Both the position numbers and the translations under genes were made by a program. A DNA stretch of 64,000 bases, from the sequence record NC_028881.1. One strand, given 5' to 3'. The notes under the pieces were generated by a model. That model did no database searches, had not been told where the DNA came from, and worked only from the letters and a program-made list of their open reading frames with translations. This document shows positions 8,896 to 13,533 of this stretch, one piece after another; positions within the stretch are counted from its first letter, which is position 1; every line of letters begins with the position of its first letter. This DNA is from Escherichia phage vb_EcoM-VR5.

Positions 8896-10227
8896 TCAAA
8901 CGTAATAGGCATCAGTACGAGCACGAGTAATACTAACATAAGCTAGCTGTGAAGCTAAATTAACATCAGCCATGTGCATACATGGGGTATAGATGAAACT
9001 ATTCTGGACTGTGAGCCCCTGTGATTTATGAACAGTGCTCACTGGAAGAGCTCGAACCTTAGTAAACATTCTCTTAGCTTTCCAGAAATCAGCCCACTTA
9101 GGTTTCTTACCAGTTCCACGCATAGCCTTATACTCAGTAGCAACCTTAGCCAAGAAATAATGGAACTTCTCAACTGAAGCCTCATCGATAACCTTGATAT
9201 GCTCTACGTAATACTCGTCGTCTTCATCAATAGATTCAACCTGGAGGTCCCAGTAATTAACCATTTGGCGAGTGCCTACGTCCTTAGCAGACAAGAACAG
9301 TGAGGTGTGGTTCACATCCAGAATACGAACCATTTGACCGTTATTAAAAATGGTTTCAGAGAATTTCTTACCATCGTATTCAAGTTCCTTCATAAAAGGC
9401 TCTTGCATCACAAGGATTTCACCCTTGATATAAGGTACATCAGTTTCGTAAAGCTTTTTACGGATAATGCTATTAAGCTTTTCAACCGATTTATTTGTAT
9501 AAGCAAACATCCTGTTCTCAAACAGTGCATCTGCATCTTTTACGATGGAAAAATAATTCATCATAAAATCTTTTAAAGCGGTTTGGGATTTAAAACCATG
9601 AACACCATGACCTTCGAATACACAATCTCTAAACCAGCCGCCATTACGGATTTCGGTAGCAACCTCAATGATAGGAGCATTACTACGCATCACTTCAGTC
9701 AGATGTAGCTGTTTAATTTTAGGATGTGTAAAGAATGGAGACAACTGAGGGCTTCCATCACTTCCGGGTTCTACAGGTTGTAACTGTGCTCGGTCACCAA
9801 TTCCTAGTACAGTGCACCATGGTGGAACCGAAGCTTCAATAATCTTAAACAACTTACCGTCAATCATTGAGCCTTCATCAACAACTAGAACATTACATTT
9901 GCTCAAGTCAGGAGCTTCGCGTTGTTCGAAGATATCCTGGTCTTCATATGTAGTCGGGTTAATCTTTAAGATTCGATGAATTGTCGATGCTTCTTGGCCT
10001 GCGAGTTTAGACAATACCTTTTTGGCTGCATGTGTAGGCGCAGTCAAAATAACTCCGAGTTCGCCATTCTTGACCAGGTGGTCAAGAATAAATTTAGTAA
10101 GGGTTGTTTTACCTGTACCGGCAGGACCATTCAATGTAATCCATTCACCCTTACGTCGTTTAATAGCTTCAATGATTTCTTTAAAGGCCGTCCTCTGGCC
10201 AATGTTCAAGTCTTCAAATGTAATCAT
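8896..10227 (-). CDS. dda: Dda DNA helicase (SF1B)
   Basis: 443-aa ORF; Walker A GPAGTGKTT; N-terminus matches my recollection of T4 Dda. Confidence 0.9.
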   Translation of the reverse strand: MITFEDLNIGQRTAFKEIIEAIKRRKGEWITLNGPAGTGKTTLTKFILDHLVKNGELGVILTAPTHAAKKVLSKLAGQEASTIHRILKINPTTYEDQDIFEQREAPDLSKCNVLVVDEGSMIDGKLFKIIEASVPPWCTVLGIGDRAQLQPVEPGSDGSPQLSPFFTHPKIKQLHLTEVMRSNAPIIEVATEIRNGGWFRDCVFEGHGVHGFKSQTALKDFMMNYFSIVKDADALFENRMFAYTNKSVEKLNSIIRKKLYETDVPYIKGEILVMQEPFMKELEYDGKKFSETIFNNGQMVRILDVNHTSLFLSAKDVGTRQMVNYWDLQVESIDEDDEYYVEHIKVIDEASVEKFHYFLAKVATEYKAMRGTGKKPKWADFWKAKRMFTKVRALPVSTVHKSQGLTVQNSFIYTPCMHMADVNLASQLAYVSITRARTDAYYV

Positions 10228-10524: not shown

Positions 10525-11268
10525 TTAACCTCTAATCAGTTTAAAAATTGACGCGTTCAGTGGAAGACCTTTTTTCAACTTCAATTTGTCAATAAAAGAA
10601 AGGTGTTCTAAACGCTCCAGACCTTGAATAATTTTATCATACATATCGTAACGCGTTTCTGCTTCAGACAATTTAAACTTGGCACGCCAATCAGGCCCAC
10701 CAATTAAAGATTTAAGACCTTTTTCCATTATACCGATCGAAGCGTTAGAACCATGGATACGAGCTTTAACTGCGATAACAGAAGGAGTTTTATCGGTAGC
10801 TCCTGATTTAATAAGTTCCTTAAGACGATTTTCACGTTTCTTAAGACCTTTTTGAGTATCTTTGATATTTTTAATGATTTTACGAATTTTATAATAATTA
10901 TCAGGAGTAACTTTAAAACTATTTGGCATTTTAGAACCGCCTGAAATACGAACTGCTAAACGGGTCTGAGCACGTTTCAATTCATCAAGAGATAAATCGG
11001 CCCGTAAGCCGTTATACTTAACTTTAACCGGGATTACATTACCCTCGACATACCCTAGGTCATTATTGAATCGTTCGAACGAGACTTTATCAAGAGTTGA
11101 GTTCTCATCAAAACGTTCCCCGGAATAAGCACAGAATTCCTGTCTCAAAAGATTAGCGATATACTTGCTAGTCAGATTGAAATCCTTACCTCGGCGCTTA
11201 GCAGAAGTTTTGGTGTGCTCGCGGCGTTTGTAAACTTTTAACGCAAACTCTTCTTTTGATAAGTTCAT
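10525..11268 (-). CDS. hypothetical protein (247 aa), in the position of T4 srd
   Basis: ORF; size and synteny (dda ... modA) match T4 srd; no motif check possible. Confidence 0.6.
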   Translation of the reverse strand: MNLSKEEFALKVYKRREHTKTSAKRRGKDFNLTSKYIANLLRQEFCAYSGERFDENSTLDKVSFERFNNDLGYVEGNVIPVKVKYNGLRADLSLDELKRAQTRLAVRISGGSKMPNSFKVTPDNYYKIRKIIKNIKDTQKGLKKRENRLKELIKSGATDKTPSVIAVKARIHGSNASIGIMEKGLKSLIGGPDWRAKFKLSEAETRYDMYDKIIQGLERLEHLSFIDKLKLKKGLPLNASIFKLIRG

Positions 11269-11300
11269 GATATTTTTCTCATCTTACGGACGATTAGCTG

Positions 11301-11337
11301 ACAGGTCTATAGTATCACGTTACTCTATAAAGTAAAT
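11301..11337 (-). promoter_or_regulatory. early promoter family member
   Basis: TGATACTATAGACCTGTCAGC core. Confidence 0.45.
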
Positions 11338-11406
11338 ACTTTTTTGCTTTAAATTTTCAATGGTATAATGAATCAAGGACTTTGCCTTTCAATTAAACCA
11401 GGTAGT

Positions 11407-12021
11407 TCAGTAAGAAAGAACGGAAAGATTCCATAATGTATAATCCTGCCATCCATAAACACTCTCAATAGAGTCTACGCGTAGCGTAGTTCCCGCAGGG
11501 AACATCATCTCATCTTCATCGTTTACTAATTGTAAGTTTGTAGCGCGTGTTATTTCAGGAAATAATCCGTTGAACTCTTCAGGTGGGGCAGCACAAATCA
11601 TTTTAAAGATTGCTTCCTGGTAATCGAATGCAAAAGGTGCATCATTAATACAGAAAATATTTTTAGTTCCGTAAAAATTATATGAAGCAAAGTTACGGGC
11701 CACCTTAAAATCCTTTGAAAAGCTCATTACTCGGTCGAATTCAATTGTAGCACCAACACATCCTACCGATTCAAGGTATTTCAGCGTTTTCTTTGAAATA
11801 CCGCGATACAACTTATCAGGCACTACAGAAGTCAGATTCTTACGAATAATTTTGTTCAAAGTTTCTTGAATAGAATCCGGTTTATTTTCCATGCACTGCC
11901 ACAGGACGCTTTGTTCTTCGTCAGTAAAACGCTCATTAATTTCACCCTGAGCATTATCACGAAAATCATCACATACAATATTATCGTAGAACTCGTTCAT
12001 TTTATAAGTGGTGTATAACAT
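11407..12021 (-). CDS. modA: ADP-ribosyltransferase, ModA-like
   Basis: 204-aa ORF; R-S-ExE motifs (LYRGI, SFS, EDE); tandem paralog of next gene; RBS GAGGAG. Confidence 0.7.
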   Translation of the reverse strand: MLYTTYKMNEFYDNIVCDDFRDNAQGEINERFTDEEQSVLWQCMENKPDSIQETLNKIIRKNLTSVVPDKLYRGISKKTLKYLESVGCVGATIEFDRVMSFSKDFKVARNFASYNFYGTKNIFCINDAPFAFDYQEAIFKMICAAPPEEFNGLFPEITRATNLQLVNDEDEMMFPAGTTLRVDSIESVYGWQDYTLWNLSVLSY

Positions 12022-12034
12022 ATTATTCTCCTCA

Positions 12035-12076
12035 GTTGATAGAAAGATAGTAACACGAGCCTCCTTTCTCGTAAAC
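12035..12076 (-). promoter_or_regulatory. early promoter family member upstream of modA
   Basis: GTTTAC...TTACTATCTTTCTATCAAC. Confidence 0.5.
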
Positions 12077-12645
12077 TAAAAATCCAACATTTTTAAATGA
12101 ATTGTTTTGTACTCGATTTCGTATGGGTCTCTTTTGATAGTTTCGATTTCTACAATCTCGAACCGTGATAGACTAGAGACCATGAATTCACATTCAGTTT
12201 CAACCATATCATAGAGGTCAATACGGGTTTCATCTATTTCAAGCCCATCCACGTTCCCTGCAAGAACAAGGTCAATAGCGTGATTATAGTAGTCAAAAAT
12301 GAAAGGTGCATTCCTGAGACTTAAGATGGTTTTGGTCCCGTACTCCCAAGCCCCTGCGAACTGACGAGCTTGGGAATATTGAGTACTAAAAGAAGTGACC
12401 CGACCTGGAGACCACTGACACCCAACAGAAAGAACTTCAAGTTGTTCAAGTTCTCTAGGGGTAATCCCACGATAAAGCTCTACCGGAACTGCTGAAGTAA
12501 CATGCTTACGAACTAGTTTGTCTAGGTCGTAATGGAAGTTAGGGTCTTTTTTGGCATCTAGACATTTTTCTAAGATGGCCTGTTCTGATTTTGAGAATTT
12601 GGAATTGATTCTGTCTTGATAAAGACATTTTTGCTCGATGTTCAT
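12076..12645 (-). CDS. modB: ADP-ribosyltransferase, ModB-like
   Basis: 189-aa ORF; LYRGI, SFS, ETECE motifs; RBS GGAGG. Confidence 0.7.
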   Translation of the reverse strand: MNIEQKCLYQDRINSKFSKSEQAILEKCLDAKKDPNFHYDLDKLVRKHVTSAVPVELYRGITPRELEQLEVLSVGCQWSPGRVTSFSTQYSQARQFAGAWEYGTKTILSLRNAPFIFDYYNHAIDLVLAGNVDGLEIDETRIDLYDMVETECEFMVSSLSRFEIVEIETIKRDPYEIEYKTIHLKMLDF

Positions 12646-12654
12646 ATGACCTCC

Positions 12655-12699
12655 GGTGATTTAGAGGTCATTATAACATGAAGAGAAGGGATGTAAAAC
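12655..12699 (-). promoter_or_regulatory. early promoter variant upstream of modB
   Basis: -10 TATAAT followed by GACCTCTAAATCAC. Confidence 0.45.
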
Positions 12700-12888
12700 T
12701 TATTTTACCCAAGGTGCCCAGGGTGGAGGGTCTTGATAGTAAGAAGCAAGGTCGCTCAGGACCTCTTTAGGCAACTTAAAACCGTGCTTCTGTATAATCA
12801 TATCAAGTTCATTAACAAGGTCAATAGGCGGCTCCTGAGTTGTTTCAGGCTCAGGGTCCGGGATGACAAACATATCAAATAAATCCAT
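12700..12888 (-). CDS. hypothetical protein (62 aa)
   Basis: ORF in operon. Confidence 0.5.
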   Translation of the reverse strand: MDLFDMFVIPDPEPETTQEPPIDLVNELDMIIQKHGFKLPKEVLSDLASYYQDPPPWAPWVK

Positions 12889-13379
12889 TAGTAACCACCG
12901 ATAGGACCATAACCGTACATACGACCTCGTAGCTTAGCATCGCGAATAGCTTCTTCAGTAGGTGTAAAGCGCAAACCTATATCAAAGTGTTTCCAAATCT
13001 GACATTCTACTTCCGTAAGGTCTTCGATGGTAGAAATCAAATACGTACGGCCTTTAAGTCGTTCATTAGACATTCTATCAGTATCTTTATAGAAAATATC
13101 CATTGTTCCTTCGGCAAACGCGTCTGCTGGATAACGATACCCTTTGATATGCAACGCTTGAGACACACTAAAAGGACAGCCCTCAGCTACAGCAACGTTT
13201 TTGTTATGATACGCCTTCATCATGATGTTTTCTGGTAGCTTAATAGCCTTTAACCTTTTTTCCAAATCAGCAATAGAATTCATACCGTTGTCAACAAAGA
13301 TAAGACACGCCGTAGCATCATAAGGTCGTGTTTGGCCTGATGAATCACGTACATGGAATTCGAGTTCATAGACTTTCAT
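12888..13379 (-). CDS. hypothetical protein (163 aa; T4 mrh region)
   Basis: ORF with RBS GAGGAAA. Confidence 0.6.
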
Positions 13380-13533
13380 TATGTTTTCCTCTTCTTAGTT
13401 TACCTACTAAAGGGCCATCCGGAATTTTATTTTCCTGGATGTATTTCTCGTTTTCTTCCATCATTTTACTGCCAATTTTAAGAAGCAAATCCAGCGCCTC
13501 TTTAGCATGTGCTTCAGCTTCTTCAGTAGTCAT
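13366..13533 (-). CDS. small hypothetical protein (55 aa)
   Basis: hand-translated [18 protein letters not shown]...; ATGA overlap with upstream ORF stop; SD GGGGA. Confidence 0.4.

Follow-up and report, generated by a model that had tools for sequence, protein, structure and literature searches.

Predicted tandem Mod-family ADP-ribosyltransferase paralogs in the modA/modB position of Escherichia phage vb_EcoM-VR5

Among the closest known relatives of the genes studied here are modA and modB of phage T4. The T4 ModA protein ADP-ribosylates Arg265 of the RNA polymerase alpha chain, in both subunits (PMC2988021). The ADP-ribosylation targets of T4 ModB are the ribosomal protein S1, EF-Tu and trigger factor; it also efficiently RNAylates S1 and L2 with NAD-capped RNA, a reaction that T4 ModA and Alt hardly perform (PMC10468400). 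Mutagenesis has linked these activities to individual residues: the double change R73A/G74A in T4 ModB abolishes both ADP-ribosylation and RNAylation (PMC10468400), and E165A in T4 ModA abolishes ADP-ribosylation (PMC11404850). We analysed a stretch of 64,000 nucleotides (nt) from Escherichia phage vb_EcoM-VR5 (NC_028881.1; hereafter the window), in which two adjacent genes on the minus strand, called A and B below, fill positions 11407..12645 beside the gene srd. We consider it highly probable that they are the modA- and modB-position genes of a Dhakavirus (JS98-like, T4-related) phage, each encoding a small, single-domain, arginine-specific mono-ADP-ribosyltransferase (ART).

A pair of Mod-family paralogs

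Gene A (11407..12021, minus strand, 204 amino acids) occupies the srd-proximal position, that of modA, and gene B (12076..12645, minus strand, 189 amino acids) the srd-distal and promoter-proximal position, that of modB. The two open reading frames (ORFs) are separated by a spacer of 54 bp, and each is preceded on the same strand by a good Shine-Dalgarno sequence: for A this is GAGGAG at 12028-12033, at 6 nt from the ATG, and for B it is GGAGG at 12650-12654, at 4 nt from the ATG. In the alignments, the motif LYRGI lies at residues 71-75 of A and 57-61 of B, and SFS at 100-102 and 85-87, respectively. The third motif reads EDE in A (169-171) and ETECE in B (149-153), whose last three residues, E151-C152-E153, form the aligned ExE. 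The corresponding catalytic codons, all on the minus strand, are R73 (11803-11805), S100 (11722-11724), E169 (11515-11517) and E171 (11509-11511) in A, and R59 (12469-12471), S85 (12391-12393), E151 (12193-12195) and E153 (12187-12189) in B; the glutamate codons of both genes were also read directly off the DNA. A first-pass annotation, made from the sequence without database searches, had described two adjacent ART paralogs here; its coordinates are exact and every motif it quoted was found, with the strand, which it left unstated, being minus. It had also called the two proteins otherwise diverged, which is fair as a description but overstated, since they are 37% identical across 167 residues (BLASTP, E 1e-30) and are clear paralogs.

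Both proteins match the PHROG 832 family, "RNA polymerase ADP-ribosylase" (1.9e-43 for A, 1e-36 for B). In BLASTP comparisons, A is 33% identical to T4 ModA over its full length (79.7 bits, 2e-23) and 39% identical to T4 ModB (92.4 bits, 4e-28), and B is 34% identical to T4 ModB (86.3 bits, 6e-26) and 24% identical to T4 ModA (25.8 bits). The residues R73, G74, S100, E169 and E171 of A, and R59, G60, S85, E151 and E153 of B, do not vary in any of three alignments, which comprise 6, 27 and 42 members of the family. This catalytic set aligns with R72/S96/E163/E165 of T4 ModA and R73/S99/E171/E173 of T4 ModB; the catalytic residues of A and B are thus tied to the mutagenesis cited above, because they align with R73 of T4 ModB and E165 of T4 ModA. 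Judged by sequence, A and B are Mod-family (T4 ModA/ModB-type) ADP-ribosyltransferases of the Arg-Ser-Glu (R-S-E; cholera-toxin/C3-like) clade, and this membership is secure. The earlier proposal of a pair resembling T4 modA/modB therefore agrees with the homology to the T4 proteins, the synteny with T4 and JS98, the invariant R-S-ExE residues and the predicted ART fold. The alignment to T4 ModA and ModB that it had suggested as a check keeps the catalytic glutamate pair, with both glutamates invariant in 42 of 42 sequences.

The predicted structures point in the same direction. AlphaFold2 models built on a 27-sequence alignment reached a mean predicted local distance difference test score (pLDDT) of 89.7 for A and 88.0 for B, with a predicted template modelling score (pTM) of 0.83. 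In these models the arginine lies in a beta-strand, the serine at the start of a strand that is followed by a helix, and the second glutamate at the start of a strand that follows a long helix, which is the layout expected for R-S-E ADP-ribosyltransferases. In a Foldseek search of the PDB, all 50 listed matches of each model are R-S-E ADP-ribosyltransferases (E 1e-7 to 1e-5, template modelling (TM) scores 0.5-0.57), and the listed matches include Certhrax, C3bot, Plx2a, ExoS/ExoT, VIP2, CDTa, Iota Ia and HopU1. Among the viral models of BFVD, A superposes on a Serratia phage 'modB' at TM 0.89 and on Tequatrovirus 'modA' at TM 0.86-0.88. On these models, A and B share the C3/VIP2-type ADP-ribosyltransferase fold. 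A search of PDB sequences gave no solved relative for A or B; its only match, of A to an archaeal TrmB (E 0.004), was judged spurious, this protein having another fold family and no correspondence with the motifs.

Both genes are under purifying selection. Compared with JS98 and dhabil, gene A has a ratio of non-synonymous to synonymous substitution rates (dN/dS) of 0.11 and gene B one of 0.02-0.06, comparable with srd (0.17-0.19) and modA.3 (0.08-0.09). Non-synonymous change is about 2 to 5 times faster in A than in B, and amino-acid identity to the counterparts in JS98 and dhabil is 80-89% for A and 94-98% for B. The dN/dS values and the invariant catalytic residues led us to reject a reading of A and B as chance ORFs, and the PHROG 832 matches, too, lie far outside what chance would give.

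Orthology, targets and alternative readings

The enzymatic activity, early timing and targets that we propose for A and B are taken from T4 only. By this analogy, T4-early-type promoters would let host RNA polymerase transcribe the two genes as soon as infection begins. Each enzyme would bind nicotinamide adenine dinucleotide (NAD+), held by the arginine of LYRG and the serine of SFS; the second glutamate of ExE would activate C1' of the ribose, and the first would confer specificity for arginine. ADP-ribose would then be moved onto arginines of host proteins, and host transcription and translation would be reprogrammed for the phage. If gene position is a guide to the targets, A would act on Arg265 of RNA polymerase alpha, and B on S1, EF-Tu and trigger factor, possibly with NAD-capped RNA. 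This mapping of A to ModA and of B to ModB (with its S1, EF-Tu and trigger factor targets and its RNAylation), made by gene position alone, is a tentative one, and we would not put it quite at even chances. That the divergence between A and B reflects different targets, as the first-pass annotation suggested, is likewise conjecture.

Several observations weigh against the proposed reading of the pair. The best T4 match of A is ModB (92.4 bits) and not ModA (79.7 bits). Neighbour-joining (NJ) trees were built from BLOSUM62 distances, one for 16 sequences (300 bootstraps) and one for 42 (100 bootstraps). In these trees one clade, with 100% support, unites the srd-proximal genes ('A-type') found in Dhakavirus, Mosigvirus and Yersinia phage P8, and a separate clade, also at 100%, unites the distal genes ('B-type') found in Dhakavirus and Mosigvirus. 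Neither clade joins T4 ModA or ModB with support: the deep nodes have 3-50%, and the placement of T4 ModB has a bootstrap of 4-9%. Finally, among the curated Pfam and NCBIfam models of the local libraries, none reached its threshold for A or B. T4 ModA and ModB themselves match nothing in the same scans, so we take the empty result as a gap in the libraries and not as counter-evidence. The nearest Pfam model, PF03496 (ADPrib_exo_Tox), gives 12.7 bits (E 0.082) for A, against a gathering threshold of 23.4 bits, and no match for B; the relation to it is one of fold and clade, not of membership of the Pfam model. In the protein database all members of the family carry the tag PF26816, a model missing from the results of the local Pfam scan.

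The mismatch with T4 could mean that A and B are active Mod enzymes but not one-to-one orthologues of the T4 pair, the slots next to srd holding different lineages through independent duplication or cassette exchange, with targets that differ in part. We regard this as a real possibility, if a somewhat doubtful one. Besides the trees and the preference of A for ModB, it would account for the reverse searches, in which A is the best window match of T4 ModB (92 bits, against 86 for B). A is also the best window match of T4 ModA (80 bits against 26), and the best T4 match of B is ModB (86 against 26). The explanation would also fit the observation that A and B are nearer to the Mod protein of Gelderlandvirus and Winklervirus, which have a single copy (41-44% identity), than they are to T4 ModA or ModB. 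A single mod gene lies next to srd in six genera (Gelderlandvirus, Winklervirus, Karamvirus, Jiaodavirus, Roskildevirus and Krischvirus), and two mod genes are found in Tequatrovirus, Mosigvirus, Dhakavirus and Yersinia phage P8. In the last of these (vB_YenM_P8), the proximal protein is 70% identical to A, but the distal one (L005 2396-2956) is only 27% identical to B and groups with a quite different lineage of Mod proteins (P0042, P0045, P0050). An exchange between lineages seems to have taken place in the distal slot. Against this explanation stand the gene order and promoter position, which are the same as in T4, this synteny favouring the orthology of A with ModA and of B with ModB. T4 ModA also sits on a long branch, so that the lack of clustering may be produced by the NJ method itself, applied to about 190 columns. 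A and T4 ModA share the C-terminal ExE-M-x-PAG, and the model of A superposes on that of Tequatrovirus ModA at the TM score of 0.86-0.88 given above. A stronger form of the same idea, which we find rather unlikely, is that T4-like phages exchange 'Mod cassettes' in the two srd-adjacent slots and that the A and B types of Dhakavirus and Mosigvirus are lineages separate from T4 ModA and ModB, with host targets that differ at least in part; it would imply, for instance, that neither A nor B modifies Arg265 of alpha, or that both are ModB-like and capable of RNAylation. Because the best matches are inconsistent and the deep nodes poorly supported, sequence leaves one-to-one orthology with the T4 genes unsettled, and the mapping onto T4 is therefore positional only.

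The chemistry of the two enzymes can be questioned in other ways. Their main reaction might be something other than simple protein mono-ADP-ribosylation, for example RNAylation (by either copy or by both), the modification of nucleic acids or a role against host defence. T4 ModB RNAylates S1 and L2 efficiently and T4 ModA and Alt hardly do (PMC10468400), and neither window protein is less similar to T4 ModB than to T4 ModA. There is, however, no known sequence determinant of RNAylation that could be checked, and charge and isoelectric point are uninformative as discriminators between ModA-like and ModB-like proteins, since all of the proteins are acidic. In R-S-E ADP-ribosyltransferases, ExE in place of QxE marks protein arginine as the acceptor, and the ExE of A and B argues in that direction; we judge a different main reaction improbable. 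Duplicated enzymes also commonly degenerate, and one copy could be a catalytically dead pseudoenzyme that acts by binding host proteins alone. Nothing specific speaks for this beyond that common fate and the faster non-synonymous change in A. The arginine, the serine and the two glutamates do not vary in A, in B or in any of the 42 relatives examined, purifying selection acts on each copy, and both models show a complete ART fold with high confidence. We consider a dead copy extremely improbable, and reject it on the invariant catalytic residues and dN/dS.

We thus retain the reading of A and B as modA- and modB-position genes encoding Mod enzymes. The labels 'modA' and 'modB' in T4-like phages outside Tequatrovirus are positional and not a demonstration of orthology. 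Because they are positional, the T4 targets should not be transferred automatically to phages outside that genus. The A- and B-type enzymes, 31-39% identical to the T4 proteins, are possible natural variants with which to map the determinants of target choice and RNAylation.

Promoters, neighbouring genes and relatives

A near-consensus T4-early-type sigma-70 promoter is predicted immediately before B at 12670..12697 on the minus strand, reading (G)TTTACA, 16 nt and TGtTATAAT; the promoter scan scores it at 11 of 12, with the TG extension in addition. The elements GTTTAC and TGnTAT(A/G)AT are conserved in this position across four genera, namely in JS98, dhabil, Mosigvirus OLB35, Yersinia phage P8 and T4, the T4 site being the equivalent one upstream of modB. 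The spacer between B and A contains a second, weaker candidate at 12047..12075 (minus strand; TTTACG, 17 nt, TGtTACTAT), recognised by eye with 8 of 12 matches, under the threshold of the scanner. It overlaps the stop codon of B and is placed such that it would drive gene A. JS98 and dhabil have conserved its pattern GTTTAC...TGnTACTAT, and Mosigvirus OLB35 nearly has; in T4, where modB and modA overlap, a spacer of this kind is missing. A similar promoter-like element precedes srd. The sequence thus predicts early-type promoters upstream of B and, as the weaker candidate, upstream of A. The only terminator-like site inside the pair (12416..12394) was rejected: it lies within the coding sequence of B, and the number of such sites is within the expectation from shuffling. 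A scan of the whole window with Rfam, intergenic regions included, matched no family.

The genes on the same strand follow the order dda, dda.1, srd, A, B, modA.2, modA.3, which matches both T4 and Dhakavirus JS98. The gene dda lies at 8896..10227 (minus strand), and dda.1, on the same strand, matches Pfam Phage_Y01A (3.5e-26). The downstream neighbour of the pair, srd (10525..11268, minus strand), matches PHROG 1400 'Srd anti-sigma factor' (6.3e-91) and has the same position in T4 and JS98. About 100 residues at the N-terminus of Srd also match PHROG families of HNH endonucleases, endonucleases and endonuclease VII (E 2e-16 to 4e-5), which suggests that this 'anti-sigma decoy' may carry a nuclease-derived domain. 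Upstream of B lie modA.2 (12700..12888, minus strand; PHROG 1647, 2.2e-30), which is so annotated in JS98 and T4, and the gene in the modA.3 position (12888..13379, minus strand), which matches the T4 MRH-like model PF24070 (2e-44) and PHROG 1234 'Mrh transcription modulator under heat shock'. T4 has both modA.3 and mrh, and a separate mrh between srh and mrh.1 is not listed in JS98-type genomes.

Over the first 25 kb of the window, identity to Dhakavirus genomes is 88-90%. Protein A matches a database 'ADP-ribosylase' of Escherichia phage vB_EcoM-VR5 at 100% identity, its counterpart in dhabil at 89% and that in JS98 at 80%; protein B is 98% identical to the dhabil protein, 95% to those of E33 and KIT01 and 93.7% to JS98 modB. 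The pair is already known, being annotated as modA/modB in JS98 and JS10, with the identical A protein public. The finding is real and its family-level reading is correct, yet it is ordinary, and those prior annotations and that exact public A protein leave it little weight as a discovery.

The nearest DNA relatives differ along the pair. The region of B (12022..12700) is closest to JS10 and CUA3 (91.8%), and that of A (11269..12075) to dhaeg, dhabil and CLB_P2 (89%), a pattern that indicates recombination mosaicism within the pair. The gap between B and modA.2 (12646..12699) spans 54 bp in the window and is about 235 bp longer in JS98 and dhabil, where dhabil has an ORF for a hypothetical protein of 77 amino acids; this length difference is an indel polymorphism among Dhakavirus genomes. 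Names in the databases are not consistent either. The UniRef name of the protein in the modA slot is 'NAD--protein ADP-ribosyltransferase modB', and its GenBank relatives are called ModA or ADP-ribosylase. In several deposited genomes that match window 12700..13500, the small genes modA.2, modA.3 and modA.4 are named 'molybdenum ABC transporter, periplasmic molybdenum-binding protein' (examples are dhabil_83, Yersinia phage P8 ORF189-191, CLB_P2 and ESCO10), evidently an error that spread from the clash of names with the bacterial ModA.

The Mod family as a whole was found in 1077 phage records, and nearly all of these phages infect Enterobacteriaceae or related hosts. When 1.8 billion representative proteins were searched with a profile, only 146 clusters matched at E <= 0.001, some of which are domains of giant proteins. 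Such Mod-like ART domains occur inside proteins of 1000-7000 amino acids (P0052, P0062, P0063, P0065, P0144 and others), and the PHROG 832 profile itself has 1480 positions, with Mod matching at 1252-1440. These observations are consistent with polyvalent or virion-injected effectors that share the Mod domain.

Comparison with known ADP-ribosyltransferases

The modA and modB genes of the Dhakavirus phages JS98, JS10, dhabil and vB_EcoM-VR5 are direct orthologues of A and B and show allelic differences only. The comparison with T4 is more distant. A and B share family, size and single-domain architecture with T4 ModB (NP_049636, 207 amino acids), and B has the same gene slot and the same position of the early promoter, but the identity of A and B to ModB is only 31-39%, and B is 18 residues shorter and lacks the insertion that ModB has before the ExE helix. 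The overlap of the two T4 genes contrasts with the 54-bp spacer and its own candidate promoter in the window. T4 ModA (NP_049635, 200 amino acids) belongs to the same family as A and occupies the same srd-proximal slot, and the two proteins have the C-terminal motif E-x-E-x-M-x-P-A-G in common; the consensus N-terminal helix EQSxLWQCM, however, is kept in A and lost in T4 ModA. Beyond phages, A and B resemble the C3-like, VIP2, Iota, ExoS and Certhrax toxins in predicted fold and in the arrangement R / S-x-S / E-x-E, although they are only 9-19% identical to these bacterial R-S-E toxins in sequence and the Mod proteins have an N-terminal helical region of their own. The bacterial toxins are secreted, whereas Mod proteins are intracellular early proteins of the phage.

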